Numbered from the stretch's first letter, positions 4,944-54,302 are shown. The stretch is 58,901 nucleotides of DNA from a virus (IMGVR_UViG_3300025632_000005:1-58901); one strand, 5' to 3'. Program-made: numbers and translations. Notes: generated from the sequence alone by a model not told the origin.

Positions 4944-5213
4944 TTACCTATCGTCGAAGTCAGTTCCGTATGATGGGTTGACCATACCACCAGCCATGTA
5001 GTTTTTCTTAGCTGGATCTGGTCTACCAGTAATATCTTTTAAACGTATAGGAACTCCAGATGCTCCACTACCTTTTCTTTTTTTAACTTTTTCTTTAGCT
5101 TTTTTAAAATCTTCTTTTGTTATATATGCATCAGTTGGCTTTTCATCATACTTCTTACCTTTAAAGGTTCCAATTCTACCAGTTAGCATTGGTTTTTTGT
5201 TTTTATCTGTCAT
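4944..5213 (-). CDS. Small basic protein with C-terminal GG...FDDR motif (paralog of next gene)
   Basis: Start revised to ATG 5213 (GGAGG RBS); ends YMAGGMVNPSYGTDFDDR. Confidence 0.65.
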   Translation of the reverse strand: MTDKNKKPMLTGRIGTFKGKKYDEKPTDAYITKEDFKKAKEKVKKRKGSGASGVPIRLKDITGRPDPAKKNYMAGGMVNPSYGTDFDDR

Positions 5214-5544
5214 CGAACTCTCCTCCAAATAATGGGTTGACTGTTCCTCCAGTAAAGAATTTACTTTTAACTTTACCACCACTAGCTTTAGAATCTTTCT
5301 TTTTCGTTCTTTCTTTTTCTAATTCTTTTGCTCTTTCCATAAACATATCCCGACCAAAAATTTCATTATATGCCTCGGCTGTTTTGTCAACTAATTCTCC
5401 CTCTTCTAAACCAATAGCTTTAGTAATTTTATTTTCATTACCGATTGCTTTGTGAAATTTTCTAACTAGTTTTTCTTTAATATTTGGTTTTCGTTTATAT
5501 TTAAATTTTTTAGTTTCTTCACTCATTTCTTTTTCTTTCCCCAT
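5203..5544 (-). CDS. Small basic protein with C-terminal GG...FDDR motif
   Basis: Ends FFTGGTVNPLFGGEFDDR; start may be 5526. Confidence 0.65.
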   Translation of the reverse strand: MGKEKEMSEETKKFKYKRKPNIKEKLVRKFHKAIGNENKITKAIGLEEGELVDKTAEAYNEIFGRDMFMERAKELEKERTKKKDSKASGGKVKSKFFTGGTVNPLFGGEFDDR

Positions 5545-6194
5545 TCATATAGGTTATCAAATGTTGTTTCCCAGTCCATATAACTATCGTGTTGTTCTGC
5601 GGAGTGTTCCCACTGTGACGGTACAAAGTCTGGTGGTCCTTCTCCAACTGCCCATAGCGCAGGATTGGTTACACGTACACGATTGTTTGGTAATGCTACT
5701 ATACATCCTTTATAAGGACCTGATGTTAATTCCAACACATGCGATTGTTTATGTTGTGCTGGATCATCCGATATATAACTGTCAGTATAATCAACCGTAA
5801 ACATGTACTTACCATTATAAAACTCACCTGCTAGTTTACACAACCACGGACTAGAACTAATTCGATCCATTCTAATGATAGCATGGTTACGACTAGAACA
5901 GTCCCACGGCTGTGCTAAATGTGTTTGTATATTTGGTGGCCATTCGTCGAAAGGAGTATCACCGACAAGTGCAGTTATAGGCATACGTGCCCACATTGCG
6001 CCACCGTGAGGATTGGGATGGTCTTCACCACATCCTGTAAATACAACTTGAAAACTCAAACATCTGTCTGGAATAGTGCACACGGCAAAAGCTAATGCAT
6101 GAAGAAACTCACCTTGATATTCCTCATGATTATGTGTGAACTCTTTCCTCACCCAACACTTAAAGTGTGGGATATTAGAAATCGTATACGACAC
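5523..6194 (-). CDS. Conserved phage protein of unknown function (Cys/His/Trp-rich, enzyme-like)
   Basis: 223-aa globular-looking ORF with QPWDC, HKQSH and PNNRV segments. Confidence 0.7.
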   Translation of the reverse strand: MSYTISNIPHFKCWVRKEFTHNHEEYQGEFLHALAFAVCTIPDRCLSFQVVFTGCGEDHPNPHGGAMWARMPITALVGDTPFDEWPPNIQTHLAQPWDCSSRNHAIIRMDRISSSPWLCKLAGEFYNGKYMFTVDYTDSYISDDPAQHKQSHVLELTSGPYKGCIVALPNNRVRVTNPALWAVGEGPPDFVPSQWEHSAEQHDSYMDWETTFDNLYEWGKKKK

Positions 6195-6397
6195 TACTTG
6201 GCTCTACCACCTCTTGCCATATACTTGGAAGTTTTACCACCTTTAGCCATGTACTTAGATGTTTTACCTCCACCCTTCATTCTGTATTTGGAAGTCTTAC
6301 CTCCACCAGCCATTTTCTTTGGTCCTTTCATCATAGCTTTTAACTTTTTGTTTTCAGCCATGAGCTTTTTCATTTTAGTTTCCATTGCTTTACTCAT
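6194..6397 (-). CDS. Very basic small protein with tandem GGKTSKY repeats
   Basis: MAGGGKTSKY-RMKGGGKTSKY-MAKGGKTSKY-MARGG; GGAG RBS. Confidence 0.7.
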   Translation of the reverse strand: MSKAMETKMKKLMAENKKLKAMMKGPKKMAGGGKTSKYRMKGGGKTSKYMAKGGKTSKYMARGGRAK

Positions 6398-6412
6398 TTT
6401 ACTTACTCCTTA

Positions 6413-6880
6413 TTATAGATTGGTTAACACATATACTTCGAAAGCTACGGCTGCCAATCCGATCAACCCAGCTCCGATTCCTATTATAATATTCTTTCTT
6501 CGTTTTTGCATCTGTATTTTTTGTTTTAATAGTGTTGCCTGTCTCTTTCTTTCAAATGCAATTTCTTTTTGTAGTCTCTCCCACTGTCCTGGAGAACCAT
6601 ACAATGCAAACATTTCTCTCATTTGATCTCGTATTCTCTTTGCCTCTTCATTTCTAAAGTGTGCATCAATAGCATTCTGTTCTGTTCCAGTTAGTTTACC
6701 AAGAACTTTACCTAATCCACTTGATTTATTACTAGCCACAACTTGTAAACCAGCTTCGGCCTTTGCCCATTTCGACACAGTGCTTGACATATTAGCTAAA
6801 TCCTTACCAGCTTTAATAGCTTTGGTTATAGCATCAGTAGCGCCTTTTAGTGCGGCGAAAGCTGTGAATGGGTCTATCAT
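6413..6880 (-). CDS. Conserved phage protein with C-terminal transmembrane helix
   Basis: MIDPFTAFAA start, coiled coil, basic patch then a hydrophobic C-terminal segment. Confidence 0.65.
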   Translation of the reverse strand: MIDPFTAFAALKGATDAITKAIKAGKDLANMSSTVSKWAKAEAGLQVVASNKSSGLGKVLGKLTGTEQNAIDAHFRNEEAKRIRDQMREMFALYGSPGQWERLQKEIAFERKRQATLLKQKIQMQKRRKNIIIGIGAGLIGLAAVAFEVYVLTNL

Positions 6881-6886
6881 CGTCGT

Positions 6887-7162
6887 CTATGCCTTTCTTT
6901 TTGTTTTAACCTTTTGTTTCTTACCACTAGCGCTAATCGGATATCTTATCGATGTAGGTTTTGGTCCAATATTAGTCTTGGCTCTTTTTCTTTTAACTGC
7001 CGAAGATTTCTGTCCAGCAGACATTTTGTTAGCAACTGCCTTTGGACGACAGACTGGATACTTTCTTTTTGACGACTTAGCTGATTTACGACCACATTTT
7101 TTACCAGTAGATATATCAACCCAATCTTCTTTAAACCAAGTCTTTAAACCTTTCTTAGCCAT
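6887..7162 (-). CDS. Small Lys/Arg-rich protein
   Basis: WFKEDWVDI...KCGR...YPVCRP; very basic. Confidence 0.7.
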   Translation of the reverse strand: MAKKGLKTWFKEDWVDISTGKKCGRKSAKSSKRKYPVCRPKAVANKMSAGQKSSAVKRKRAKTNIGPKPTSIRYPISASGKKQKVKTKRKA

Positions 7163-7253
7163 TCTTTTTCTTTAAGTTATATTTATTAGGAACCTTTCCA
7201 TAACCAACAACTCTGTCCCATTCTCTTTGTGTGTAATAATTTTTTTCAGTCAT
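7155..7253 (-). CDS. Small protein not in the ORF track (32 aa)
   Basis: MTEKNYYTQREWDRVVGYGKVPNKYNLKKKNG; fills the gap and abuts or overlaps its neighbours. Confidence 0.55.
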   Translation of the reverse strand: MTEKNYYTQREWDRVVGYGKVPNKYNLKKKNG

Positions 7254-7254
7254 A

Positions 7255-7512
7255 CTATCTATACTTAGTTACTTTTCGACGGTTGTTCATAACTTTACCA
7301 CAACCACGAGCTATGCCACCATTCTTTAATTTAATCTTACCACCACCAGCTTTACTAGGCTTTGGTCCTTTAAAATCTTTTCTCTTCTTACCACTAGGAT
7401 CTTTTATCTTACCCGCACATATCTTTGACGCATATGCATTTGCATAAGCTGAGGGATATACTGCAAACTTACGTTTAGCAGCAGCTTTACCTCTAGGACA
7501 TAACTTTGTCAT
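7255..7512 (-). CDS. Small Lys/Arg-rich protein
   Basis: LCPRGKAAAKRKF.VYPSAYAN...LKNGGIARGCG. Confidence 0.7.
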   Translation of the reverse strand: MTKLCPRGKAAAKRKFAVYPSAYANAYASKICAGKIKDPSGKKRKDFKGPKPSKAGGGKIKLKNGGIARGCGKVMNNRRKVTKYR

Positions 7513-7618
7513 ACTTGTATCCCCATCTGTTTTCTGATAAATCCCAAACTCTTTTAGTGGCCTTTGGAATCTTAACTAATAATTTATTAAACTTTACGAC
7601 GTTTTTTGTTACTTGCAT
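7493..7618 (-). CDS. Small protein not in the ORF track (41 aa)
   Basis: GGAGG RBS; MQVTKNVVKFNKLLVKIPKATKRVWDLSENRWGYKYDKVMS. Confidence 0.55.
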   Translation of the reverse strand: MQVTKNVVKFNKLLVKIPKATKRVWDLSENRWGYKYDKVMS

Positions 7619-7691
7619 ACTTCCTCCGTTTCTTTGGTTTACTCGGTGGTTTTGTTATTTGTTGTCCTATATTAGCACGACTTATTACCAT
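7587..7691 (-). CDS. Small basic peptide not in the ORF track (34 aa), N-terminus resembles the major capsid protein N-terminus
   Basis: MVISRANIGQQITKPPSKPKKRRKYASNKKRRKV. Confidence 0.55.
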   Translation of the reverse strand: MVISRANIGQQITKPPSKPKKRRKYASNKKRRKV

Positions 7692-7697
7692 AACTCA

Positions 7698-8588
7698 TTA
7701 TATACCACGAGGTTCATAATTACCATAGGGATTTGAAGCTATTATTGATCCACCTTCTTTGTATCCAAAATGGGATGCAATATCTTTAACAAAAGTTCTA
7801 TTAGGTATAAATGTTTTTTGAGTATACATTGGTTTGCCAGTCTTTGGAGAAGTTCCCTCATATTGTCTGACTATGATACGTTCAGCTCTTTGGTATTCAC
7901 TGCCTTTACCTTTACTAGGCACTGACTCATAAACGATAGACTCTTTACCACCTTTACCAAAGGGTTCTAATTTAGGATCAATTAAATCTTTTTTTGATCC
8001 AGGAACTATAGAACCATCCAAATACTCTAAATATTTTTCTAAACTTTTTCCGTCTAATGTTTCATAAGGATGTAAACCACCTGTAATATAATCCTCTGGA
8101 TCAACATAACCATACTTATCATCTAATTGATCAAGCATTTGTTCTTTTTTCATCTGTCTTGTGATAGCTTCTTGTTCTCTTAATTTTTTATCTTCTATTA
8201 ATTTAACTTCTTTAGTTTTATCAGGTAGCTGTAAAGGCACATCCCTATCATCAGTTAAACGTAAAGGAGAGTCCCCAATACCTTGAATTGGTTTTTTTGA
8301 AAAGTTTTTAGCTAAAGATTTTAAAGCTCGTGGTGCAAGACCGACGGCTGGAATAGCCCCTAGTGCTGATAATAAATATAAAGCTGCATTACCAGAGGCA
8401 TCAAGATAATCTCCTGATTCTAAATCTTCTTTTGTTTTTTCATAATACTCAGGTATATCAGCTAATGATTTAGCCTCTCCTGTAATCGGAGATAATTCAT
8501 AAGCTAAACCTAAACCCGATGGTTGTTTTTCTACAAACTCTTTGTAGTCTTTTAATGGTGTAATACCTTTATTTGTTTCTTCAGCCAT
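7698..8588 (-). CDS. Hypothetical protein, possible internal virion protein
   Basis: 296-aa ORF with hydrophobic LSALGAIPAVG segment and C-terminal YKEGGSI..NPYG motif. Confidence 0.65.
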   Translation of the reverse strand: MAEETNKGITPLKDYKEFVEKQPSGLGLAYELSPITGEAKSLADIPEYYEKTKEDLESGDYLDASGNAALYLLSALGAIPAVGLAPRALKSLAKNFSKKPIQGIGDSPLRLTDDRDVPLQLPDKTKEVKLIEDKKLREQEAITRQMKKEQMLDQLDDKYGYVDPEDYITGGLHPYETLDGKSLEKYLEYLDGSIVPGSKKDLIDPKLEPFGKGGKESIVYESVPSKGKGSEYQRAERIIVRQYEGTSPKTGKPMYTQKTFIPNRTFVKDIASHFGYKEGGSIIASNPYGNYEPRGI

Positions 8589-8589
8589 A

Positions 8590-8811
8590 TTAAATACCTA
8601 TAAGTATCTTTGCAATCACAGCCGATGCTCCAGATTGCATGACTATGGTAGCACACACAGCCCCGACAACTAACCACTTAACTTGAAATATAGACCGTTT
8701 TACACAACCCATATCTTCTTTTAACTCAGATACATCTTCACGAAGTTGTGCTTCTCTTTCAATGTGACGAGTTAACTCAAGTTTAATATCAGTTAATTCT
8801 TTGTTAGTCAT
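8590..8811 (-). CDS. Coiled-coil plus C-terminal TM protein (holin/XhlA-like candidate)
   Basis: Start revised to MTNKEL; heptad region followed by WLVVGAVCATIV. Confidence 0.55.
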   Translation of the reverse strand: MTNKELTDIKLELTRHIEREAQLREDVSELKEDMGCVKRSIFQVKWLVVGAVCATIVMQSGASAVIAKILIGI

Positions 8812-8812
8812 T

Positions 8813-8941
8813 CTAGAATACCCAGCACCATACCAGTAAACCTGCAAAAATAGCAATGATAACATCTTTCTTACATTTATGTGGCCAATACTCTATACAC
8901 TTTTCTTTAATCTTCATCCATATCATTTTAATATCTAACAT
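8813..8941 (-). CDS. Small membrane protein not in the ORF track (42 aa)
   Basis: AGGAGG RBS; MLDIKMIWMKIKEKCIEYWPHKCKKDVIIAIFAGLLVWCWVF. Confidence 0.5.
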   Translation of the reverse strand: MLDIKMIWMKIKEKCIEYWPHKCKKDVIIAIFAGLLVWCWVF

Positions 8942-9234
8942 TTCCATCTCCTCCTTGCTTGACAGATTCTTTTATTTGGTGTCTTTTTACAGTTAACATT
9001 ATGCATCTTGGCTTGACCCGCAGACCGTGCACAAAATGACTTTCTTCTTTTCGCAGATTTACTACCCTTTGCGACTTTACCAGTAACAGCAGTTTTTAAT
9101 TTAGAACCCGGATTAGCACGACGATAAGCGGCGACACCTTTAGCCGACATACCTGCGCCTTGTTTCGTAGGTCTAAAGTTACCAGATTTGACACTGGACT
9201 TTATGCCCATGCCTTTCTTTTTACGAGTAGCCAT
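8935..9234 (-). CDS. Small Lys/Arg-rich conserved phage protein
   Basis: Start revised to MATRKKK; YRRANPGSKLKTAV...RRKSFCARS...ARRRWKC. Confidence 0.7.
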   Translation of the reverse strand: MATRKKKGMGIKSSVKSGNFRPTKQGAGMSAKGVAAYRRANPGSKLKTAVTGKVAKGSKSAKRRKSFCARSAGQAKMHNVNCKKTPNKRICQARRRWKC

Positions 9235-9238
9235 AAGT

Positions 9239-9514
9239 CTAGCCAGTAAAGACTGTACCAGCTGCACTTGTAGGTACAGTTATATGTAAATTTGTTTCGT
9301 AACGAATACCAGCATCTTCAATATACTGATCCGTTGCGCCACCACTATTAAGTTGAACTTTTAAAACAATGTCACCAGTAGCGCCACCATCTCTTAATGT
9401 AAGTTCTTTAATAGATGTAGAATTATTTACAAAACTATAGCCTCTTATACGACCAGAACTTGAATCAATCGTACCAGTAGCTGAAACAAAACTTGATTTT
9501 ATATTTGTTGCCAT
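9239..9514 (-). CDS. Small structural protein downstream of the capsid gene
   Basis: AAGGA RBS; beta-rich composition. Confidence 0.6.
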   Translation of the reverse strand: MATNIKSSFVSATGTIDSSSGRIRGYSFVNNSTSIKELTLRDGGATGDIVLKVQLNSGGATDQYIEDAGIRYETNLHITVPTSAAGTVFTG

Positions 9515-9568: not shown

Positions 9569-10507
9569 TTATGCTCCCGCAGAACCGTAATATGATCTCC
9601 AGTCACTGAAACCAAAGCTATATCTTTCTCTAGCTTTGAATCTCAAGTTACCAGTATCAAAGTCTGGTTCCATTTTTGTAGCTAATGGTGCTCTTACGAA
9701 CATTTTAGCTCCGTTTGGAACATCGGTTTTAATGAAGTACGCATTGGTATCTGTAAACCTATGATTTACAAAGTAGCCTTTAGGAAGCATACTCATTGAA
9801 CGTACTGCATTAACATCGTTCAAGTTTGTAGCTCCATTTGCTGCTGTGGTAGGATTCACACCAATCGAAGTTGACAGTGTACTTGCTAAGATTTTCTCAG
9901 CTGTAAACTGTAGATTCGGTGGAATGTGCAAAGATTCTGCACGTGTACCAGTTAAGATACCTCTGTCGTCTTGTGTATTTTGAATAGCAATCAAGGCAGT
10001 TTCTAGTGTAGCTTCAGATAAGTCTGATGCTGCTAGTAAGTTGTCTTGAGTACCACCCACGACAGGGTGACTGTTAGAGAAGAATGCAACTCCGTCTCCT
10101 CCAGCAAAGTTTGCGTTAAAACCATTGTTAAACACATTTGCGGCTTTTACTTGTTTAGTAGTAGCCATTGCTCTTGCAAGACCTCTTGCACGTACTTTCG
10201 CAAAAGTATCATACAAATTATCTTCCATTGCTTCCTCAGTAACTGCGAAAGCTAAAGCAACTGTTTCGTGTGAGTAACGGCTAGTGAATGACTCTGAAGC
10301 AGAATCATACTGCACCGCTGCACCTTCTGATTTAGTTGGTGCTTCACCGAAACCAGTGAAAAGAACTTCTTCTTCAAAAGCTCTATCCGAGTTTTCAGTC
10401 TCAAACAAAGATGCGTGTTCGTCATCTATTGAGCCATACTCCAATCCAAAGACTGCGTTTAGTCCAGGAAGGAGCTGTTTAGCGATATTACCTCTATTTA
10501 TAGCCAT
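9569..10507 (-). CDS. Major capsid protein (HK97 fold, Mu gpT-like family)
   Basis: MAINR..IAKQLLPGLNAVFG, SDRAFEEEV, K.EG, EEAMEDNLY, KARERYSFG..DWR; GGAGG RBS; followed by terminator. Confidence 0.85.
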   Translation of the reverse strand: MAINRGNIAKQLLPGLNAVFGLEYGSIDDEHASLFETENSDRAFEEEVLFTGFGEAPTKSEGAAVQYDSASESFTSRYSHETVALAFAVTEEAMEDNLYDTFAKVRARGLARAMATTKQVKAANVFNNGFNANFAGGDGVAFFSNSHPVVGGTQDNLLAASDLSEATLETALIAIQNTQDDRGILTGTRAESLHIPPNLQFTAEKILASTLSTSIGVNPTTAANGATNLNDVNAVRSMSMLPKGYFVNHRFTDTNAYFIKTDVPNGAKMFVRAPLATKMEPDFDTGNLRFKARERYSFGFSDWRSYYGSAGA

Positions 10508-10520: not shown

Positions 10521-11117
10521 CTATGCTAAGTCGGCAATCGAGACCGTGGAACCAAGTCCGTAGTGATCTCTATGCTGGTTAATTTTAACTTCAATATTTG
10601 GGAATGCATCAGTTGCGGCTTCACCCGGTAACGTAGACCTTCTCAAAAGTCTTAAAGTCTTTGCTTGAACAGAGCCTGATCCGCCTTTTAAGCTAAATCC
10701 AGACATACCTGTGATTGTAGATCCAGCACCTAATGATACATCCATGTTCAAGTGAAGCTGAGTGTCTGCCACTGAAGCGCCTGCTTGAATTTCGAATGTA
10801 GCATTTGGATCATCAATGACTAAAGCTTTCGCTTCACCTTGTCCGTGATGAACTTGACCTGCTGGAAAGTAGTTATTAAAGGTTGGTTGCTTTGTGTTTG
10901 GATCAACCCAATTAGCACCCATAAAAACTCCTGCAACTAAATCCGTTGCGGCTGAGACTTTATGCACCTTGCCACTAACAATCTTTACCAAGTCACCTTG
11001 GAAAATTGCAGTCGCATGAGCTGCCTTTACCCCATACTCATTCATACCACTGGTATTATAAGCACCGCCACGCATTCTAGAAGGTTGGAGTCCTCTAAAG
11101 TTTTTCGATGTTGCCAT
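10521..11117 (-). CDS. Capsid decoration / minor capsid protein
   Basis: Start revised to MATSKN (GGAGG RBS); IFQGDLV, GVFMG and DDPNATFEIQ; directly upstream of the capsid gene. Confidence 0.6.
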   Translation of the reverse strand: MATSKNFRGLQPSRMRGGAYNTSGMNEYGVKAAHATAIFQGDLVKIVSGKVHKVSAATDLVAGVFMGANWVDPNTKQPTFNNYFPAGQVHHGQGEAKALVIDDPNATFEIQAGASVADTQLHLNMDVSLGAGSTITGMSGFSLKGGSGSVQAKTLRLLRRSTLPGEAATDAFPNIEVKINQHRDHYGLGSTVSIADLA

Positions 11118-11168
11118 CTCTTCCTCCTTCAAAAGTAAGTGTTTAAGTTAAATTTTAACCGACACCCT

Positions 11169-11669
11169 TTATTTATCAAAGTGTGTTGGTCTACCTGTGG
11201 TAACTTTTGATCGACTGTTGTTAGAGATTGGCATACGAGGATCATTCTTACTCATAAGCTGTCTGTTGATTGCATCAGTTTGGGATTGTGTAAACTCATC
11301 TACATGTTGTTTATATCCCTCTTGATTTTCTATAGTGTTTGTTGCTAAAGCTACATCACCACGGATAACAAGTTTACCGAGACTACCTACAGCTTGGTTT
11401 TGGAAACCAGCACTGAGTTCAGGAACATCTTCAGGTCGAACAAAGTCCCACCCTTCAAATTGTTTTTCCTGTACATTCTGATCATCATACTGACCCTTCA
11501 GAGAAACTCTGATCCATCTAAGGATAAGTCCTTTTTCTTTGAATCTATTAGTTACCTCTTCAGGAACCTTTAACCAATTCTTCTTTTGATATACACCTCT
11601 TTGTTTTCGAGCTGTACTTTGCGCTGAACGAGTCGCTACTTTTACGTCATTTGTTTTTGGTGTAGTCAT
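11169..11669 (-). CDS. Conserved head-module protein
   Basis: LRWIR...EGWDFV..EDVPE...GDVALA; lies between scaffold and decoration genes. Confidence 0.65.
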   Translation of the reverse strand: MTTPKTNDVKVATRSAQSTARKQRGVYQKKNWLKVPEEVTNRFKEKGLILRWIRVSLKGQYDDQNVQEKQFEGWDFVRPEDVPELSAGFQNQAVGSLGKLVIRGDVALATNTIENQEGYKQHVDEFTQSQTDAINRQLMSKNDPRMPISNNSRSKVTTGRPTHFDK

Positions 11670-12724: not shown

Positions 12725-13147
12725 TTACTTACTGATATCCAAATAGTTAGGGTCAAGGTCTTTCGGGTCTGGTACAACCATTAATACTTGGTCATCAAAC
12801 AATAGAATCATTCTAATACCTTTGTAAGAGAATTTATCACCTTGATACTTACCATACACAACATAGTCGCCGGGTTTACACCATGCTCTTCCTTTAAACT
12901 TATCACGGTCAGCATAGGCAAGTTCGCCTACTTTTAAAACACGACCAATAGTTGTTAAGTATCGAGCATCATCTTTAAATTTATCTGGAAGTAATATACC
13001 TCCTTTAGTTTTTTCTCTAATAGACACTGGTCTAATCAATACATGATAACCAGGAAGATTAGGTAACACCTCTGGATCGGGTGATTCTTTATTAGTAATC
13101 CATTCGTCGTTGCCAGATATGGCTGTTGCTACTCCTGCTGCCTTCAT
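12725..13147 (-). CDS. groES: Co-chaperonin GroES (Cpn10)-like protein
   Basis: PGYHVLIRP...KTKGGILLP...GRVLKVG...KPGDYVVYGKY.G, Cpn10 signature. Confidence 0.85.
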   Translation of the reverse strand: MKAAGVATAISGNDEWITNKESPDPEVLPNLPGYHVLIRPVSIREKTKGGILLPDKFKDDARYLTTIGRVLKVGELAYADRDKFKGRAWCKPGDYVVYGKYQGDKFSYKGIRMILLFDDQVLMVVPDPKDLDPNYLDISK

Positions 13148-13148: not shown

Positions 13149-13346
13149 CTAGTCTTCTTCTCCTTTTTCGTATAAGTTTTTTTCTGCTAATTTAAGTTCT
13201 TCGATAGCAATAGTCAAGCCTTCTATTATACCAACTTGATACTTATAGTCTGCATAATTTTCAGATGAACCTGTTGCTATTGTTTCACTTAAATTATTTT
13301 TAGTTGTCGTCAATTTCTCTCTAAGATAGTCAGCTACGGCATCCAT
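13149..13346 (-). CDS. Small conserved phage protein
   Basis: G...Y..YKYQVGIIEGL pattern; coupled to groES. Confidence 0.6.
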   Translation of the reverse strand: MDAVADYLREKLTTTKNNLSETIATGSSENYADYKYQVGIIEGLTIAIEELKLAEKNLYEKGEED

Positions 13347-26418: not shown

Positions 26419-26419
26419 G

Positions 26420-40322: not shown

Positions 40323-40394
40323 AATCAACTCCATTTGTTAAAGGTTAACAAACAGTGCTGGTTGCCTTTACGACCGCAGCCCACTGATTATTAT

Positions 40395-41119: not shown

Positions 41120-41163
41120 CTAAAACAATAGGAATATTATTACGTTTATAATTATGTATGTTG

Positions 41164-44451: not shown

Positions 44452-44458
44452 ATAGTTA

Positions 44459-44486
44459 AATATATACTTTTAATAATGTTAGTCAA
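44459..44486 (-). promoter_or_regulatory. Promoter for the glycosyltransferase operon, probably leaderless
   Basis: TTGACT-16 bp-TATATT ending 7 nt before the ATG; no SD sequence. Confidence 0.5.
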
Positions 44487-44488
44487 TA

Positions 44489-47400: not shown

Positions 47401-49828
47401 TCTTTTCTGATCTTGACTGTGTTCTTAAATTTAAAAGTGTATTATATAAGGCTATACCTTTATTATGACGACCAATAAAGTTAGCCGAAGTAAACCAACT
47501 GCCAAACTTTTTAAGTGAGTTAAGTGGTCCTTTAAAAAAATCTAAAGCTTTGTCGACTCGTTTACTTTGATCTCGTCTTATTTGTTGCAATACATTCTGA
47601 TCAATCCTTGGTTCTTCTGATGGAGGTTCTTGATCACTTGGTGGTTGTCCTCCTGGAGGTGTTTCTCCTGTACCACCACTATCGGCACTTTCACTTTCAA
47701 CAGCTTCTATTATTTCGTCAGCTTGTTCTGTAAATTCGTTTGAAAAATTATTACCACCACCAGTAATTTGTTTATCGTCACTAACTGTTTTTTTGTTTGG
47801 TTTATCTTTAGCTTGGCTAAAAGCTTTTGTTGTTTTATTGTTCTGTACTCTTATTAAGTCTGGTATTGAGATGTCAGATTCTTTTTCTTCAACTGAAAAA
47901 TTAGGCATTTCGTTTATATCCTCAACTGTTTCTACATCAACTGTCTGATTACCTATTTTACTATTTAAATATTCAATAGCTTTTGTCTCACCTTTATTTC
48001 CATCTTGGTCAGTCTCTTCAAAAAACTTAGTATCGTCTGGGTTGTTAGGATTAATAGCTGCAACTAAACTTTTTAAATAACCCGGTAATTTAATTTGTAT
48101 ATTTTGTATTTGACCAACAACCTTATTACCTTGATTTGTCGCATGTATATTTTTAACTGTGCCTTTTTTGTCAGCCTCTGTCATAGTTAAAAATTGTTTA
48201 GTTTTTTCTTGAACAGACTCAGGCAAATCTGTTACAGCATTATCAATAATTTTGTCTATGGTATCATTAAATTTATACTCTTGAATATTCTGTTGCATGT
48301 CTGCCTCAGAAGTAAATTGTAATCTTGGTTTACTTAATTTTATCGATGTCTTTTTCTTTGGTTGTTGTTTTCTTTTGTTTGAATTAATCTCAGCTTGTTT
48401 AACTTCTTCTTGTGTTTTCGTATCGTATGGAGATTTAGTGTGATATATAAATCCTTGTTTTTGTCTTGGCACACCTTTAGCTTTATCGCCTCCATATATA
48501 GGTGACTTGTCTATTTTCTTATTTTTAACTAAATCTTCTAAAACATTTTTAACAAATGTTACACCTTTGTCATCTGTTTTACGTCTAAGAAATTCTCTTT
48601 CGGCAGAACCTAAACTTTTTAATATAGCTGTAGGCGATATCTTTCTATAGTTCGTACCGTCTTTAGTTCCTTGAGTAGCAACATCACTAATTAAATTATA
48701 TATCTTAGCCGCTATACCTTGTTCAGCCGTTTGCTCTGATGTTAATCTTTTCTTTCCTGTAAACCCTTCACCAACAATATCTTCTGGTTGAAAGGTTAAT
48801 AACTTTGGACCTTCTTCTTTAATAGTTTGACCTATTTGTTTTTCTTCTGGTTTGTACTCTATCGCTAAAGGTTTAGATGGATTGTCCGTTGTTTCTATAT
48901 CTTTTTTTAAACCTGCTAAACCAACCTCTACTAAACTTAACGGACCTTCGGCAATACCCTCAAGAGCCACAGCCCCTGGAGATTTTATTTCACCAAGACT
49001 TTGTATTTGTGCGACAGCCTCACCAAGAGAACCAAAGCCAGCTGCGGGTACAAACTCCATAGCTGCTGCCGTTTTCTTACCGACGTTTACTTTTGCGCTC
49101 GTCTTCAAAGCTTTGGTTAATAATCCCGCCGACCCAAAAGCCACAGCATCAAAGGCACCAATAGGTACACCACGAGCAAGAGCAAACTCTTTTGCCTCGG
49201 CTAGTTTATCTTCATCTGATAAGGCATCGGCTAATTCACCACCATCATTGATATCTACTCCCGCTTCATTAAAAGCATCGACAATAGATAGTCCGTATTC
49301 AGTAGCACCACTACCCGATCCTGTGGTTAAAGCACCAACAATACGACCGAATAATCCTCGTGTTGCTAAAGCCGCACCACCACCTACTGCCAGTGTTGGT
49401 AGATATGTACCAATCGACTCACCAATTAATGGTCCGATAACACTAAGGTTATCTCCTAGTGCAGACATAGCTCCACCAAGTGTATCAGCCTCGGTAACTT
49501 TTTGTAGTGTTTCGGCATCTTCTCGATCTATAGGTATCTCGGCTTGACGTTGTTGATAACGACGAATGTCATAGACTGCATTTTGTATATCATCAATCCC
49601 AAGTTCTAACTGCAACATATTGAAAGCGATCTGGGCATTACGAAAACCACGTTCAACAGAATTGAACGGTAGCATTTTTGCAAGGGGTCCTACAGGCTCT
49701 GGTGGAATGTTAAGACGATTCGATATCTCTTTATGGTTGTCGTCTATGTATGTTTTGATTTCAGCATCCGTTGCATCGTCATCAAAACTAAGTGAACCAT
49801 ATTGACCAATGTCAACTAGCTTAACCAT
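44489..49828 (-). CDS. Large internal virion / DNA ejection protein (polyvalent-protein-like)
   Basis: 1779 aa; Gly/Ala-rich hydrophobic N-terminal region; YFPLSRRGD resembles the PLxRFG motif; TQF.Y..AKP and C-terminal hydrophobic helix. Confidence 0.7.
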   Translation of the reverse strand: MVKLVDIGQYGSLSFDDDATDAEIKTYIDDNHKEISNRLNIPPEPVGPLAKMLPFNSVERGFRNAQIAFNMLQLELGIDDIQNAVYDIRRYQQRQAEIPIDREDAETLQKVTEADTLGGAMSALGDNLSVIGPLIGESIGTYLPTLAVGGGAALATRGLFGRIVGALTTGSGSGATEYGLSIVDAFNEAGVDINDGGELADALSDEDKLAEAKEFALARGVPIGAFDAVAFGSAGLLTKALKTSAKVNVGKKTAAAMEFVPAAGFGSLGEAVAQIQSLGEIKSPGAVALEGIAEGPLSLVEVGLAGLKKDIETTDNPSKPLAIEYKPEEKQIGQTIKEEGPKLLTFQPEDIVGEGFTGKKRLTSEQTAEQGIAAKIYNLISDVATQGTKDGTNYRKISPTAILKSLGSAEREFLRRKTDDKGVTFVKNVLEDLVKNKKIDKSPIYGGDKAKGVPRQKQGFIYHTKSPYDTKTQEEVKQAEINSNKRKQQPKKKTSIKLSKPRLQFTSEADMQQNIQEYKFNDTIDKIIDNAVTDLPESVQEKTKQFLTMTEADKKGTVKNIHATNQGNKVVGQIQNIQIKLPGYLKSLVAAINPNNPDDTKFFEETDQDGNKGETKAIEYLNSKIGNQTVDVETVEDINEMPNFSVEEKESDISIPDLIRVQNNKTTKAFSQAKDKPNKKTVSDDKQITGGGNNFSNEFTEQADEIIEAVESESADSGGTGETPPGGQPPSDQEPPSEEPRIDQNVLQQIRRDQSKRVDKALDFFKGPLNSLKKFGSWFTSANFIGRHNKGIALYNTLLNLRTQSRSEKMERQSSILKPWTNLKTKDRERKVGLAAVYSLAYKTILQPNENGEIVISVNDFNRTDGQNKRGQDVGLTVVNLAGTINEDLVLDAQETEAYLSLAKVQEYRRADTIMNTLDSLKKKLSTDTDQAIFEQMNVSMEDLLTREGLDQLVENLNEVAKNLRNMPEATVLLKNASKRIKTMVNNADTLYFPLSRRGDRFVAVTENFKKKNGEIVRRTKYFETFDSKDGSSKIVMGKANRIAEQLRIKYDPTLTVKDRDGNVKPQYEHSGIQTNTIKELEKSVDKNFYESLEAFISMMPNSVRLGNETVDKMLKKAKTLRDVKGTPTFFRTARLIPGYDFDNVLVSLSDSITSYATWASHFEFETKIIEAKNAVVNDEATTARERDYIEKLDKYINEDPYEFQNLRQLGFMFFLTDVSAATMNTFQGLPAMTYISAYGGMRKSAAGQVKAMKDVMKLLKPFKELKNLSNDSAISLEKVIEKYGSTMPRLNKIENILGSVIAPNRTNEYLNSELDGIMRDSDLNTQALIREGKLKSEKVFRIMGTMFTTTEVLNRLATYINSYELTRNNNVLHKALKFNAYDQNFNAAIQAKLGVDTQNILDNFDTFIQNQDNLEALRDQVAQTAVEETQFLYGREAKPRVTRGIGALLLQFSEYPTMMLQLMWKLGFNRGPEGRQAMAMYGVALILTSGLMGLPFAEDSSEIAELSYQWFTGKKINIEEEYYKVLEGIVSPNVAEALLKGQLNMAGLSIGPRVGLGTHPVTGGLIDVFMGDGGINKASVPALSIGRGLFDALSYMQVDDAHMATASVLPKPFANFVKATALKQGGYRTRNGEIIVPPQDVSNYSAFLQALGFTPTEIARQREMNYLMKSGKDPAALLRQRFYRREQVANAKRDRGVRENRPDVVRSAERDLRELYEDLREHNQKARSQGEYNLQIRLDPKTTRSNINENRRGMQNTYNNQPLDSQRRQRERTKYMPQ

Positions 49829-49829
49829 T

Positions 49830-52043
49830 TTATTCCGTCCTAGATGGTGACGTTGATTGTCGGATTGTGATTGGTTGATTTAAGTTTTTATCAATATATT
49901 TACTTTGGTCAAAGGGATCGACTGTGCCTGCTACAATGCCTCTATCTTTAATTTTATCAAGAGAATTTTTAGCAACTCTAAAAGCATCTGTTATTCTATC
50001 TGATAATATTTGTTTTTTTGCTGGATTTGTTTCATTAACATAATCTTGAATTAAGTATGGATCAGCAGTCATAACTTGTTTTGCAATTTCTCTTGACTCT
50101 GTACTGTTTAATTTTAATTGTTCCATGGCCATCTTAGTTAGATTGTTTTGAAGGTCAGCACCAATCTTACCTTTTTCTAGTTCAAGAGTTGCACCAGTTG
50201 TTAACAGTGAAGTGTCTTCTTTAAGTCTTTTTCTATCCCCTGTTGATACACTAGAAATATCAGAAAGTCCCTTATCAATTATTGATTGCGCATCTTCACG
50301 ACCAACCTTACCCGTTGCCACATCAAAACCTCTAAGACCCGCAGCCCCCATTGCTAGAGCATCTGTGTATTTTTCAAGGTCTGTTTTTTCTCTACCGACA
50401 ATCCCAAGAATATTTTCCATCAATGCATTATACATATCACCACCAACTTCGGGTTGTTGTTCTTTTTGTTGCGCCGCTAATAATGCTGCTTTTCTTTGTT
50501 CTTCTGCAGCAGCTCGAAGTCGTTCTTTCTCGGCCTCTGCACCTTTTTGTTTATCTTGAACGTCAGTCTCTTCTTGTTTTTTAATTTCTTTTACTTTAGC
50601 TTTATCCTGTTTACTTGTTATTATTGGTCTAGCTTTTTTAATAGGCATTATAAACTCACCTTCATCATCAGTAAATTTCTCAACACCTGGACGGAAGTAG
50701 CTATTAGGCATATTTAAAATTTCAAACGGTGCTGTTTCTTGAAAGTCTTCCATAGATTCTGCAAACTTTTTCTTTTTCCTAGTTCCTGAAAACACACTTG
50801 GCCTTAGTTTTTCTAATTCTCTTTGTCTTTCTAAAACCTCTTCTTCTTCTTCTGGTGTAGCCGTTGCACCAGCACCAGCCGATGTACCATAAACACTCAT
50901 ACCTCCCGGAGCATAGTTAATCTTACCACCCATATAAGCATTGATAACTTCTTGTGGATTAAAGCCCATCTTCTCTACAACTTGTGGAGCTTTGGATGCT
51001 AACTTCTTCAGACCTGGATTATCTGGGACTTCACCACCTTCGGCGAATAGTCCTACACCTTTACCCGCACCATAGATACCTAATGCACCTAGACCAAGAC
51101 CAGCCGCTTGTTGTCCAAATGTTGCTGGAGCTTGTTGTGCTTGTGAGGTTGTGTATGTCGATACTGGTAAATTAAATCCACGAAGTACAGATGACATCTC
51201 TTGTACTTGTTGTGATGGTCTAGTTGTTTCTCGTGCAAAATCTTCGTAACCAATGTCTAATGCTCTTTGTTGTTGTGCTTGTTGCGTACCACCTACAGTT
51301 TCAAGAGCACCTAACCCAGCTAAACCTAACTGTTGTTGCTGCGCACCTAGACCTGCAAACTGTTGACCAGCTGCTAACGATGCGGCTCTATCTGCTGCTA
51401 ACTGATTCATAGCTTGTTGATAGGCTTGTTGTGAACCTACGGCTTGAATGTCGGCTAGTCTTTGACCAGTCTGTCTACCTAATTCTGATTCTTGTAATGC
51501 TTGTCGTGATCCTCCGAATGCACCTGCACCAACGGCCGATGCTCCTATTTGTTGTTGTAGTTTATTAGCATCTCGTAAGGCTTCTCTTTTCTGTATATCA
51601 ATAACAGATTGTTGGTATGGACTCATACGTGAAGCAATAGCTGCTGGGTCTGTTGATTGTTGTGCGGCTTGAGCCGTAAGTAAGTCAGCCGTAGCTATAT
51701 ATGGTTTATATCCACCAACCATTTCTTCGACACCTTGATATGCCTCTTGTTGTTGTGGTGTTATTGTAGCTAGTCTTTGTCCTTCGTATCTTTGAAACGG
51801 TTCGGTTGTAACACCTTCGGCTCTTTCAAATAATCGTTCTAGATACGGTTGAAAATATTCTGGTATGTTACTTGTTTGTTGTGTAACTGTTGACGGAGGA
51901 GGAGGGGGAGGTGAACCACCACCACTACCACCAAAGCATGTATGCATACATTCATCAGGTGATGCATTATGGAATGGATTGTCCTCCATGCCTACACCGT
52001 ATTGTTGTTCAGAAGTTTGTAGTCGTTTTAATAAGTCAGCCAT
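49830..52043 (-). CDS. Internal virion / DNA pilot (ejection) protein
   Basis: CFGGSGGG.PPPP, IPEY, MSPYQQ.VID, GAFGGSRQA, Q/A-rich; start may be 51989. Confidence 0.7.
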   Translation of the reverse strand: MADLLKRLQTSEQQYGVGMEDNPFHNASPDECMHTCFGGSGGGSPPPPPPSTVTQQTSNIPEYFQPYLERLFERAEGVTTEPFQRYEGQRLATITPQQQEAYQGVEEMVGGYKPYIATADLLTAQAAQQSTDPAAIASRMSPYQQSVIDIQKREALRDANKLQQQIGASAVGAGAFGGSRQALQESELGRQTGQRLADIQAVGSQQAYQQAMNQLAADRAASLAAGQQFAGLGAQQQQLGLAGLGALETVGGTQQAQQQRALDIGYEDFARETTRPSQQVQEMSSVLRGFNLPVSTYTTSQAQQAPATFGQQAAGLGLGALGIYGAGKGVGLFAEGGEVPDNPGLKKLASKAPQVVEKMGFNPQEVINAYMGGKINYAPGGMSVYGTSAGAGATATPEEEEEVLERQRELEKLRPSVFSGTRKKKKFAESMEDFQETAPFEILNMPNSYFRPGVEKFTDDEGEFIMPIKKARPIITSKQDKAKVKEIKKQEETDVQDKQKGAEAEKERLRAAAEEQRKAALLAAQQKEQQPEVGGDMYNALMENILGIVGREKTDLEKYTDALAMGAAGLRGFDVATGKVGREDAQSIIDKGLSDISSVSTGDRKRLKEDTSLLTTGATLELEKGKIGADLQNNLTKMAMEQLKLNSTESREIAKQVMTADPYLIQDYVNETNPAKKQILSDRITDAFRVAKNSLDKIKDRGIVAGTVDPFDQSKYIDKNLNQPITIRQSTSPSRTE

Positions 52044-52453
52044 TTAGTTCTCTGTATAAATTGTTGGTTATCGAAACCAAGTTTATCACATACTTTATTC
52101 CATTGCATGCGACCTGTTAATTCAATGCCATCTAACTTTAGCTTCTTTGCCAAGTCTTCTAGCTTTTTAAATATTTGTTTACCAATATTGAAGTTAAGAT
52201 TTCTACCAAAGATAAATAAAATTTCTAGTAGTCTTTTCGCCGTTGGATAAACATTTATTTTTATTACATAACCTGCGACTATTCTACCATTATGTTTAAT
52301 TCTTAACAAACCTAGCACTCCTGTTTCAATATGGTTCCTTAGTATTTCTGGTGTATATTTATTATCAAACGGTATTCGTTCTACCTCCACTGGAAATAAC
52401 ATAAACACTTCATTAATATCGTCATATGATTGTACCTCTTCTACCTCAACCAA
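52028..52453 (-). CDS. GNAT-like protein within the ejection-protein cluster
   Basis: LAKKL..DGIELTGR..W....LGF pattern. Confidence 0.5.
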   Translation of the reverse strand: MVEVEEVQSYDDINEVFMLFPVEVERIPFDNKYTPEILRNHIETGVLGLLRIKHNGRIVAGYVIKINVYPTAKRLLEILFIFGRNLNFNIGKQIFKKLEDLAKKLKLDGIELTGRMQWNKVCDKLGFDNQQFIQRTKWLTY

Positions 52454-54302
52454 TAGCCGTTCTCATCAACTGTCCTAACCCTCGTGTAAGTTCAGCTGGT
52501 TGTTTCGTTGTTCCTGTTTTTGTTTTACGTACGTTTCTCATTAGCGCATATAGTTTATTTGATCCCTTATCATAACTACCTTGTCCTAATTCTGCAACAA
52601 TATCTCGTGGTACTACAAATTCTTGTGGACTGACGGCAGCGGCTCTTTTACCCTCGATGCTAGTTTGGATTAAGTCATCCATACCACCACCTGGTCCTTG
52701 GAGTTCACCCGCCATAATCCCACCCGCTTGATACTGTTGCGGGTTCATACCCAAATAACTTTGTAATCTTTGAGCACCAGCATCAGATGAACCGTCACCT
52801 ATGTGACCCACGACATCTGCTGGTATAACGAATGCATTCTCTTGTAATGTTTTGTCGGAGTTTACTTCTCCACCCTCGGCCATTTCTTTAGTATTTTTAT
52901 ATTGTTGATACATTTGTTTACCAACATTCTCACCAAGGCCTAATTCACGAACAGTGTTACCTACAATATTATTTGGCATAATACTTAAAAACCCTTGTAC
53001 AAATTCTTCTTCATTCATTTTATTTGGACTTGTATTGTAAACACCTAAACCTGATGACGGACCCATAGCCCCAGCTGGAGCTTGCTCAGCCATGCCCGGA
53101 ACTTCACCACCTTCAGCCATTCCAATAAACTGACGAAGTGAATCAATGTTAACACTAATATCTTTTTGTGGTAATTGATCTATAAGTTTTTGCGCATTGT
53201 TTGCTACTTGTGGTAATGGCTCACGTGTTGGTTGTGGAGCAAGACCACCTCCACCTTGTGGTAGCATTGGTCCTTGTGGTGGCATCATCGGAGTTGGACT
53301 AGACATTGGCATATTTGTAGGCACAGTTGGTGCTACTGGTTGAGCTAGTCCTTTAATCTTTTGTGGACTCATTGACATCATTGGTTGAGTTTGGGCGAGT
53401 CTTGAAATGCTTGGACCAGCTGTGAGTGGAACCAAAGATCCTGTTGGACGGAACGTACCTTTCTGTTTTTCAACCTCTAAATTATATGGCCCTTGTTGCA
53501 TCATAACACCACCACCTTGAGCTTTGATTTTACCACCTTCTTTAGCGCCGAGATAACCATATGAATCTGGTGTGGCTCTGCCGTAAGCAATGTCTTCTGG
53601 ATCAGCATATGTATATTCACCACGATCAAGTGGACCCTTGTAGCCATACTTACTGAGGTCAGTAGTTCTACGTTGTGGTTGCATTGGAACAAAAGGGGCT
53701 GGTTCTGGTGGAGGTGTGGCAAGAGTTTTTAAAGCCAGTCCACCTAAAGCTATAGTCCCTGGAGATTGTCTAGTTATAAATTCTGGTAAAATATCTTTAG
53801 TTCCTGGTAACTGTCCACCTAATGTTACACCTTCGGCTGTTAGGTTTTTAACACCTGTTCCGATTCCTGAAAAAGTGTTACCCGCTCCTGCAACAGATTT
53901 ACCCACTTGATCAAGGAAAGATGTTGATCCTTGTCCTACTCTACCAGCAGCTCCTTTGAAAAAACCACCTGAACCTTGTAAAAAATCACCACCTCCACCT
54001 ATGTTACCAATAGCACCCGTTGTTCCTCCTGTTGTTGTTGAACCAAAAGTAGAACCAGCAACTTTACTTGCATCAATACCTGCGGAAGACATTGGAGAAG
54101 AGCCTTGTGTTATACCCTTAAATGCACCAGACAACCCTAAACTTAAACCAGCTGAACCAATACCAGCTAGTGGACTACCAGTTTTAATACCTGTATTAAT
54201 ACCAGAATAAGCGGCAGCTAAATATGGACCGACCGTAGGAATAAATGCTAGACCAATAGGCGCAACTACATCTCTAAAAAAACCACCTATACTTTTAAAC
54301 AT
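52446..54302 (-). CDS. Internal virion / ejection protein with multiple GG motifs and a duplicated C-terminal module
   Basis: Start revised to MFKSIG (GGAGG RBS, TGATG); Gly-rich amphipathic N-terminus; FVIPADVV..IG.GS and FVVPRDIV..LG.GS repeats. Confidence 0.7.
   Translation of the reverse strand: MFKSIGGFFRDVVAPIGLAFIPTVGPYLAAAYSGINTGIKTGSPLAGIGSAGLSLGLSGAFKGITQGSSPMSSAGIDASKVAGSTFGSTTTGGTTGAIGNIGGGGDFLQGSGGFFKGAAGRVGQGSTSFLDQVGKSVAGAGNTFSGIGTGVKNLTAEGVTLGGQLPGTKDILPEFITRQSPGTIALGGLALKTLATPPPEPAPFVPMQPQRRTTDLSKYGYKGPLDRGEYTYADPEDIAYGRATPDSYGYLGAKEGGKIKAQGGGVMMQQGPYNLEVEKQKGTFRPTGSLVPLTAGPSISRLAQTQPMMSMSPQKIKGLAQPVAPTVPTNMPMSSPTPMMPPQGPMLPQGGGGLAPQPTREPLPQVANNAQKLIDQLPQKDISVNIDSLRQFIGMAEGGEVPGMAEQAPAGAMGPSSGLGVYNTSPNKMNEEEFVQGFLSIMPNNIVGNTVRELGLGENVGKQMYQQYKNTKEMAEGGEVNSDKTLQENAFVIPADVVGHIGDGSSDAGAQRLQSYLGMNPQQYQAGGIMAGELQGPGGGMDDLIQTSIEGKRAAAVSPQEFVVPRDIVAELGQGSYDKGSNKLYALMRNVRKTKTGTTKQPAELTRGLGQLMRTAIG

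Follow-up and report, generated by a model that had tools for sequence, protein, structure and literature searches.

Why should the portal, the putative ejection proteins, and a changing set of small basic proteins of one virus all carry the same short peptide? The question is raised by a stretch of viral DNA of 58,901 nucleotides (IMGVR_UViG_3300025632_000005; "the window" hereafter means this whole stretch of ~59 kb), which reads, from its sequence, as the genome of a marine podophage that is kin to the Pelagibacter phages HTVC023P and HTVC027P. Late genes occupy its minus strand (1–21095 and 40112–58901), early or replication genes occupy its plus strand (21286–40049), and open reading frames (ORFs) are named here by their start coordinate (e.g., the 49830 protein). 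An original prediction, made from the DNA alone, had drawn attention to a heptad, hydrophobic-x-x-G-G-x-[VI] with Ala allowed at the first position, in about eight unrelated late proteins, and had proposed a genome-wide tag that either marks a cleavage site or docks cargo into the prohead. Every one of the 14 heptads named there was located in its ORF; nine of them fit the rule, and five (AQGGGVM, YQAGGIM, YAPGGMS, KASGGKV, and LKNGGIA) are looser. The number of unrelated carriers was set somewhat too high, since the 4944 and 5203 proteins end in paralogous C-terminal tails and the tail of the 7698 protein shares, by eye, the GG and an NP..YG element.

Two patterns were fixed on the window, A ([FYWMLIVA]xxGGx[VI]) and B ([FYWM]xxGGx[VIM]), and expected counts were obtained by shuffling the residues within each protein (2000 shuffles for the window). 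In the 45 late ORFs (13,067 amino acids), pattern A occurs 12 times against 3.63 expected, a number reached in 3 of 2000 shuffles, and pattern B occurs nine times against 1.27 expected, a number reached in none; the 32 early ORFs (5,550 amino acids) hold no match to either pattern (0.87 and 0.35 expected, respectively). The enrichment check that the original prediction had proposed, late against early proteins, thus came out in its favor when run by within-protein shuffling, and its remark that the full pattern does not recur in the replication enzymes stands, although the late/early contrast by itself is weak (P = 0.014 for 12/12 matches and P = 0.041 for 9/9). Because the GG dipeptide alone is scarcely over-represented in the late proteins (112 vs. 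89.8 expected, a mild excess), a Gly-rich background does not explain the excess of the motif. Both orientation and spacing are specific: against nine forward matches in the late proteins of the window, there is a single match to the reversed pattern and one to each of two re-spaced patterns, and in the E2 family described below such variants number 13–15 against 100. Three of the 12 pattern-A matches (ITVGGTV, INDGGIV, and YSSGGTV, in the 949, 54709, and 41164 proteins) amount to roughly the number expected by chance, and a narrower form, x-E-G-G-x-[VI] (7 vs. 0.51), was picked post hoc and is given no weight. Codons differ between the copies, which argues that the motif is selected at the protein level; the idea that the motif DNA serves as a recombination joint was ruled out on the same ground.

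The excess recurs outside the window. Across the 87 annotated coding sequences of HTVC027P (18,326 amino acids), pattern A was counted 14 times (4.19 expected) and pattern B nine times (1.46 expected), with neither number reached in 500 shuffles. When ORFs were picked by one procedure of our own in both genomes, patterns A and B gave 12 vs. 4.5 and 9 vs. 1.6 in the window, and 12 vs. 4.3 and 7 vs. 1.5 in HTVC027P. Pattern B is marginally enriched in the own-picked ORFs of Caulobacter phage RW (4 vs. 1.3) and stands at expectation in the unrelated T7-like pelagiphages EXVC032P and HTVC203P (0 vs. 1.0 and 1 vs. 0.6). The internal proteins of T7 itself are not enriched, and among T7 proteins only the C-terminal tail of the large terminase carries a similar heptad, MSVGGVD. 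These counts support a genuine tag that is under protein-level selection, conserved in relatives, and restricted to late proteins of virion type. The C-terminal tail of the HTVC027P large terminase also carries a motif-like heptad (FRQGGLI), and a terminase is not an ejected protein. As a side observation, FRQGGLI (terminase gene at 20471–21949 of HTVC027P) and MSVGGVD (T7 gp19, gene at 37370–39130) each precede an acidic stretch, and the window terminase has no such element.

The 49830 protein, here termed E2 (49830–52043, minus strand; 737 amino acids), contains a "DNA ejection protein" domain (phrog_4287, 6.9e-14). It is laid out as a conserved helical domain (residues 40–330) with a Gly/Ala-rich helix at residues 309–329, followed by the motif FAEGGEV (residues 333–339; 51027–51047, minus strand) and then a variable C-terminal part, where AYMGGKI (50919–50939; YDNGGSI in the orthologue from contig L004) and YAPGGMS (50895–50915) lie within residues 369–383, both on the minus strand. 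A placement at domain boundaries, as originally suggested, thus holds for E2, and it holds equally for the portal and the C-terminal tails discussed below. A search of 1.84 billion cluster representatives returned 6752 relatives of E2 at E ≤ 0.001. The best 150 of these (105,325 amino acids) contain pattern B 100 times, in 69 proteins, against 9.0 ± 3.5 expected, with a family consensus of [FYM]-[AK]-[ED]-G-G-x-[VI]; in 143 more distant rows, 50 of 94 copies start at residues 280–320, just past the conserved domain. Successive copies are often arranged in tandem, 14 of 30 spacings being 8–10 residues. The motif columns are among the best-kept of the family: in an alignment of 121 sequences, both G336 and G337 are Gly in all 117 non-gap rows, F333 is Phe in 100 of 115, and V339 is Val or Ile in 97 of 113. 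An AlphaFold2 model of residues 1–420 (predicted local distance difference test, pLDDT, 76) has an all-helical domain with one very long helix (179–288), and its pLDDT falls below 50 at residues 330–338, which suggests that the motif is flexible and lies outside the fold of the monomer, where it is not packed on the helical domain. Foldseek against the PDB found nothing at E ≤ 0.001 for this model, and sequence searches of the PDB gave no match for the portal or the capsid protein and only a chance-level row (E = 0.23) for E2.

E2 is a single gene in the window and in most metagenomic homologues, and it is split in HTVC027P (gp83 and gp84) and HTVC023P (gp81 and gp82). The split lies just upstream of the motif, so that the domain protein ends after the Gly/Ala-rich segment and the split-off C-terminal half begins with the motif close to its N-terminus, at residues 9–15 in HTVC027P gp84; the HTVC023P counterpart has a looser FKEGGL slightly further in. 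In another E2 homologue, P0194, an SLT domain is flanked by motif copies.

The 52446 protein, here termed E1 (52446–54320, minus strand; 624 amino acids), lies in the ejection-protein block beside the phrog_4287 gene. It is Gly-rich and has a hydrophobic N-terminus, five motif copies, and a tape-measure-like C-terminal module, all on the minus strand. The copies are AKEGGKI (residues 259–265; 53526–53546), kept in contigs L001, L003, L006, and L007; AQGGGVM (53502–53522), which overlaps the AKEGGKI unit; MAEGGEV (residues 401–407; 53100–53120), where orthologues read MNVGGEV or MASGGEV; a second MAEGGEV (residues 480–486; 52863–52883), which is spelled with other codons than the first and reads YDQGGEV in the L006 orthologue; and YQAGGIM (residues 530–536; 52713–52733), which forms the N-terminal flank of the module. 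Across E1 orthologues from five close contigs, each motif copy persists, whereas the intervening segments come, go, and change in sequence. The more distant homologues in L008, L009, and Caulobacter phage RW have GGVV, GGTV, and GGRV, respectively, as their last residues.

The module itself (52521–52712, minus strand; E1 residues ~537–600) reads G-P-G-x-G-x-D ... E-F-V-V-P ... G-x-G-S, with E-[FY]-V as the general form of its middle element; the tape-measure type of this module is written G-P-G-T-G-x-S-D-S-I-P-A-x-L-S-N-G-E-F-V. When a profile of nine E1-type C-termini (A6) was run with hmmsearch against PDB sequences, it matched two copies in 8zdo_S, "Tape measure protein (gp16)", at E = 4.7e-10; this entry is mycobacteriophage Douge gp16, an assignment made through a listing. 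A C-terminal fragment of the RW homologue matches several tape-measure PHROGs at 1e-6 to 8.5e-9 (phrog_25241 and phrog_6090 at ~9e-9), and tblastn reaches tape-measure genes of Arthrobacter, Rhodococcus, and Nitrincola siphophages; the E1 fragment of the window alone matched no tape-measure PHROG. Pfam placed no family on the E1 modules or on residues 700–853 of lambda gpH, and tblastn of full E1 and E2 against the phage collection gave no match, probably through low-complexity filtering. By these profile matches, the C-terminal module of E1 is homologous to tape-measure proteins, specifically to the C-terminal region found in siphophage tape-measure proteins (lambda gpHC; JBD30, 8RK3; Douge gp16, 8ZDO; CoffeeBean). 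Homologous module and motif go together: the flanking heptads are YATGGYV and FANGGIV in CoffeeBean, YAGGGFL and YANGGFL in 8zdo_S, and FASGGHI in 8rk3_A, and 14 of 15 flanks, drawn from E1 homologues as well as tape-measure proteins, match [FYWM]xxGGx[hydrophobic or small], in a hand-chosen sample rather than a census. E1 and the siphophage proteins are both expelled through a tail. Unlike the siphophages, the window phage is short-tailed and has no tail tube to measure, and its motif is not confined to the module but is found also in E2, in the portal, and in many small proteins. PHROG scans of the window found no tail tube or chaperone genes, the relatives named being HTVC023P-type pelagiphages and roseophages, and E1 does not appear to be a tape measure in the functional sense of tail tube length and a place after the chaperones. 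The nearest sequence relative of the motif system is the tape-measure module.

The original prediction had named, as an analogy, Gly-Gly motifs near the processed C-terminus of the lambda tape-measure protein gpH, and this analogy proved correct, with FATGGFT at 733, YATGGYV at 778, and MRDGGLF at 842. Compared directly, E1 and gpH resemble each other weakly (E = 0.009 by BLASTP; E = 0.0036 by hhalign, at a probability of only 9%), so that the link to lambda runs via other tape-measure proteins. The segment of gpH that contains the last of these heptads (residues 818–849, with MRDGGLF at 842–848) is the only part of gpH modelled in tail structures; in the accessible parts of the two reports, it is placed in the tail tip with the gpI plug (PMC10721106, PMC12617516), on which it is anchored, residues 818–842 forming a three-helix coiled coil borne by the gpI tripod (PMC10721106). 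In JBD30, according to the portion of the report available, the tape-measure protein is resolved only over its last 33 residues (PMC11445458).

A motif common to podophage ejection proteins and siphophage tape-measure proteins, the latter without a capsid stage, could also act only after ejection, in the host envelope, through refolding, membrane insertion, or cell-wall contact of a trans-envelope conduit, with no role in packaging. The position of the E2 motif directly after a Gly/Ala-rich, transmembrane-like helix (309–329) would suit such a role, as would the SLT or lysozyme-like domains that adjoin the motif in some carriers. We nevertheless consider an envelope role rather doubtful: dozens of small, Lys-rich, soluble proteins carry a C-terminal motif, as does the HTVC027P terminase, and the one resolved copy, that of lambda, is found within the tail tip while the virion is still intact, in the part of the structural report at hand (PMC10721106).

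The portal (15644–18859, minus strand; 1071 amino acids; phrog_1216 at 1.7e-32) bears the motif at a junction. It consists of a canonical portal of ~800 residues and a C-terminal extension of ~270 residues, with FQEGGFV (16451–16471, minus strand; residues 797–803) between them and the extension occupying residues 804–1071 (15644–16450, minus strand). Among related contigs, 38 have canonical short portals (813–871 amino acids where complete) that end near window residue 770–830, and the last 70 residues of these are free of the motif in every case. Extended portals (1058–1317 amino acids where complete) number eight, and in seven of them the motif sits at the junction while its flanks are not conserved; the eighth has a degenerate LSAGGPA. 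The extension evolves fast, being 37.5% identical in contig L018, where the capsid protein is 91% identical. Its residues 916–1047 match internal virion proteins of T7-like pelagiphages, and it has SLT and Phage_lysozyme2 matches below the Pfam threshold. These comparisons mark the extension as a cargo-like domain that is fused to the portal and swapped rapidly.

A rival reading, which takes up the cleavage branch of the original prediction, is a maturation cut within or beside the GG, made by a protease that could be viral, autocatalytic, or from the host; such a cut would free the portal-fused domain, split E1 and E2 into modules, and remove the anchor tails of the small proteins, as T4 gp21 or the adenovirus protease do. 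The motif lies exactly at the junction in seven of eight extended portals and is absent from all 38 short ones, only a cut would let a portal-bound lytic domain leave the particle, the SLT domain of P0194 lies between motif copies, and HTVC027P and HTVC023P each have two proteins in place of the single E2. Moreover, lambda gpH, with its FATGGFT and YATGGYV, is cut in the neighboring Gly-rich region, according to the available part of the report (PMC12617516). Against a cut, PHROGs and Pfam assigned no protease family to any late ORF, including no adenain/Ulp-type cysteine protease and no C39 domain, and copies are found at extreme termini, two residues from a C-terminus or about eight from an N-terminus, where cutting makes little sense. 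After the fission of E2, the motif stays at the start of the downstream protein, which implies that it is more than a separator. The V/I at position +2, present in all 91 instances, is kept about as well as the upstream aromatic or Met, and the upstream hydrophobic residue stands one position too far out for the adenovirus rule (P5 instead of P4). Maturation cleavage therefore seems unlikely to us, and the notion of late polyproteins that came with it finds no protease to lean on.

Individual ORFs gave no protease either. Of the 11169 and 5523 proteins, both listed by the original prediction among possible partners, the 11169 protein has an alpha/beta AlphaFold2 model (pLDDT 69) and falls into Atlas clusters without a name; Foldseek against the PDB gave no match at E ≤ 0.001 and none that was protease-like. 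The 5523 protein (5523–6194), a Cys/His/Trp-rich product of 223 amino acids that matches phrog_3704 (labelled "ferredoxin"), occurs in only nine of 80 related loci; the PurM label given to its HTVC027P and HTVC023P homologues looks doubtful. The 10521 protein offers only a weak phage-cement lead (score 0.84). The 11697 protein was considered as a protease and rejected, as its alignment looks like a charged coiled-coil scaffold and it has no family match. A prediction of a four-chain complex (capsid protein, 11697, 11169, and residues 60–112 of the 4944 protein) scored 0.01 against a mark of 0.32, in a four-chain design that lies outside the calibration of the tool, a score that speaks neither for nor against contact. 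Binding to GroEL by mimicry of the GroES mobile loop was set aside: the phage GroES-like protein has GG-I-L-L, whereas the motif places a variable residue after GG and then only one hydrophobic residue.

The remaining carriers are small and basic, and their genes lie in the interval from the capsid gene to the adaptor gene, all on the minus strand. The 7698 protein (7698–8588; 296 amino acids) has a C-terminal tail with YKEGGSI (7743–7763), followed by NP-YG-NYEPRGI at its end. A pattern search found no relatives of it in IMG/VR, and it occurs in none of the 80 related loci; a tail of the same type, FKKGGSI..ERNPYNYEPRAI, ends other proteins in L052, L057, and L076. The basic 7255 protein (7255–7512; 85 amino acids) carries KAGGGKI (7333–7353) and LKNGGIA (7309–7329), then RGCGK; its N-terminal 36–56 residues are 80–83% identical in HTVC027P and HTVC023P, where HTVC027P gp49 has AANGGLI. 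The Lys-rich 6194 protein (6194–6397; 67 amino acids) is built around four tandem M-x(-x)-G-G-(G)-K-T-S-K-Y units; four copies had been described as MxxGG, and four there are, two of them M-x-G-G(G) and two M-x-x-G-G. Similar tandem units (KY-MSKGGAV-KKS) occur in L031, L058, and L018. The 5203 protein (5203–5544; 113 amino acids) has KASGGKV (5269–5289) and FFTGGTV (5239–5259) before an NPLFGGEFDDR end, and the 4944 protein (4944–5282; an ORF of 112 amino acids, with which orthologues align only from about residue 24) has YMAGGMV (4980–5000) before an NPSYGTDFDDR end. In the 4944 family (14 sequences), this tail is the sole conserved part, with G99, V101, N102, P103, F109, D110, D111, and R112 invariant, and a search with its last 40 residues retrieved the same tail on an unrelated family of 92–115 amino acids and on a protein of 425 amino acids.

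The wider pattern was assessed in IMG/VR on 80 capsid-anchored loci, 41 of which contain the whole interval from capsid to adaptor gene. The genes for the capsid protein, the 10521, 11169, and 11697 proteins, and the GroES-like protein recur in 61–80 of the loci (capsid in 80), and the genes of the window between capsid and adaptor mostly recur in only 2–30 of 80. The 41 complete intervals yield 315 unique cassette ORFs (median 100 amino acids, 18.9% K+R) with 49 motifs, spread over 44 ORFs; 300 shuffles gave 4.3 ± 2.0 and never more than 12. Without exception, the last copy in these 44 ORFs starts no more than 61 residues from the C-terminus. This hypervariable cassette spans 4944–9514 in the window and is represented in relatives by loci L018–L097. 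Companion elements that follow the motif in cassette proteins include R-G-C-G-x-A-x-R-G-x-G, a C-terminal ...HNRLY, and a C-terminal ...NPYNYEPRAI.

Could such a pattern arise with no common function, as a favored tight turn of Gly-rich disordered proteins that was spread by paralogy and module shuffling? The paralogous tails of the 4944 and 5203 proteins, the possible origin of the E1 copies by internal duplication, the three pattern-A matches that look like chance, and two close relatives that show no enrichment of the strict heptad are all compatible with this idea. It is made highly improbable, in our assessment, by an eleven-fold excess over composition-matched shuffles in two independent large sets, by the specificity of orientation and spacing, by GG columns that are invariant across a family with 6752 representatives, by the persistence of the motif while both flanks diverge completely, and by the different codons of its copies.

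If the motif does have a function, known short peptides of virion proteins offer points of comparison. The T4 capsid-targeting sequence (CTS) is an N-terminal leader on the internal proteins IPI–III and on Alt; it works via the scaffolding core, and the prohead protease gp21 cuts it off. Like the CTS, the motif is a short peptide that forms the sole common part of variable small proteins in a hyperplastic locus, here across 315 ORFs of 41 loci, and in both cases the small carriers are thought to be carried in the head and injected. Unlike the CTS, which is a leader of ~10 residues at the N-terminus, the copies here are C-terminal or internal, with one near an N-terminus (HTVC027P gp84), no prohead protease family is found among the late ORFs, and the same tag occurs in tail tape-measure proteins. 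The cleavage sites of adenovirus and African swine fever virus (ASFV), which are GG-X sites in virion proteins, and the double-glycine leaders of bacteriocins also combine a Gly-Gly core with an upstream hydrophobic residue. The adenovirus protease follows the rule (M/I/L)-x-G-G-x, with the hydrophobic residue at P4; in contrast to the adenovirus and ASFV sites, the motif here has that residue three positions before GG rather than two (P5) and strongly keeps V/I at +2, and the adenovirus-like spacing FxGGxxV is not enriched (a single match in the window, and 13 against 100 forward matches in the E2 family). The motif is thus not a member of the T4, adenovirus/ASFV, or bacteriocin-leader classes, as it lacks defining features of these. 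Encapsulin cargo-loading peptides are short, combine Gly with aliphatic residues, lie at cargo termini, and bind the inner face of an HK97-fold shell. They have another consensus than the motif, and its presence in tail tape-measure proteins argues against a capsid-only receptor of that type.

A further parallel is provided by Bacteroides phage crAss001, in which the cargo proteins C1 and C2 are described as large and partly unfolded, as kept in the particle through short ordered segments that dock on the portal wing and the tail barrel, and as leaving the particle ahead of the DNA; the available part of that report mentions no Gly-Gly motif in them (PMC10172136). By analogy, the T4 CTS and these portal- or barrel-docked segments of crAss001 would be the nearest functional counterparts of the motif.

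We tentatively favor the reading that the motif is a handle by which ejected proteins are docked or anchored without being cut, to which we give somewhat less than an even chance. It is a short linear motif, attached to modules that pass from protein to protein, at flexible junctions and termini of proteins that gene position and homology predict to be virion-internal or ejected, namely E1, E2, the portal-fused cargo-like extension, and a changing set of small basic proteins, and it is the same element that flanks a module in the tape-measure proteins of long-tailed phages, likewise expelled through the tail. Through a turn at GG, the hydrophobic residues on either side would meet and form a small knob, which might plug into one shared partner of the ejection apparatus, such as a portal-proximal core, the channel lumen, or a plug; docking of this kind would keep the carriers inside the virion and might also set the sequence in which they leave. 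Uncut docking is favored over cleavage by the missing protease, the copies at extreme termini, and the survival of the motif through gene fission. Of the two options originally offered, docking thus fits better, but its proposed form does not: since the motif also occurs in tail tape-measure proteins, targeting to the prohead cannot be its general role, and the common denominator is rather that the carriers are held in and expelled through the exit channel.

Several observations weigh against uncut docking. HTVC023P and CRP-902 share the core head genes and are not enriched in pattern B (1 vs. 2.2 and 2 vs. 1.7, respectively); by eye, the two have variants such as FNQGGV and FKEGGL, and in HTVC023P a hydrophobic residue directly follows GG in FNQGGV, FKEGGL, and YNSGGV. 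Cargo that is fused to the portal needs no recruiting tag, yet seven of the eight extended portals keep the junction motif, a pattern that a release site would explain no less well. The charge around the motif in the small basic proteins is very unlike that in E1, E2, and the portal, which makes a single partner for all carriers an assumption, and no docking partner was found. The HTVC027P terminase tail is an exception among carriers that are expected inside the particle. As far as the accessible text of its report goes, gpH is cut in a Gly-rich region just upstream of such motifs, with site and catalyst not known (PMC12617516). The accessible parts of two further reports contain no virion proteomics for this phage group (PMC10149686, PMC9599517); we therefore infer the virion location of the carriers, from homology for E1, E2, and the portal extension or else from gene position, and likewise the docking, the knob geometry, and the partner.

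PHROGs also identify a large terminase (18866–20401, minus strand), a major head protein (9569–10507, minus strand), and the GroES-like protein (12725–13147, minus strand), and several fiber and structural proteins were also assigned. The nearest named phages by tblastn of the portal are HTVC027P, HTVC023P, the Roseobacter phages CRP-901/902, DSL-LC04, and RW-type Caulobacter phages, at 33–43% identity. The 11697 protein has 1928 homologues at E ≤ 0.001 in marine metagenomes, where the group is abundant. Two conserved genes at 10521–11669, between the scaffold-like 11697 gene and the capsid gene, occur in 72–76 of the 80 loci. Three enzyme-like genes between the portal and the GroES-like gene (13334–15651) occur in only two of 80 loci each: a weakly PhyH/2OG-oxygenase-like ORF (14650–15651), a methyltransferase (13932–14663; phrog_8156), and an ORF without assigned function (13334–13969). 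Between E1 and E2, and overlapping both, lies an ORF of 141 amino acids (52028–52453) with no PHROG match and no tblastn match in relatives; the small gene at this position is labelled GNAT in CRP-902 and hypothetical protein in HTVC023P. Finally, ORF 2–934 (minus strand) leaves the window at its 3' side and ORF 58257–58901 (minus strand) is open at its 5' side; the two could be one fiber-like gene that spans the junction of a circularly permuted genome.

To our knowledge, the selection, holding, and release of injected phage proteins are known in detail only for the T4 CTS and are largely open for podophages and tape-measure proteins. No published description of the motif was found in the searchable literature, which leaves subscription journals and supplements outside, and the accessible parts of the pelagiphage and roseophage genome papers are silent on it; the element appears to be undescribed, widespread, and directly testable. 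Its seven residues give the exact positions to mutate in an ejection-protein family with 6752 representatives, and they are a candidate portable tag to load foreign proteins into particles. A far broader claim, that it is a universal, portable "ejectosome handle" of tailed phages, shared by tape-measure proteins and podophage ejection proteins, sufficient for loading and injection, and with a processing or release step that explains the conversion of gpH to gpH* and gpHC, seems quite improbable to us. The motif does offer a fresh approach to how lambda gpH is cut and anchored, for which the available part of the report gives neither site nor catalyst as known (PMC12617516). In one of the most abundant marine phage groups, it tags fast-changing small proteins, and these may be candidates for injected effectors, for example against host defences.

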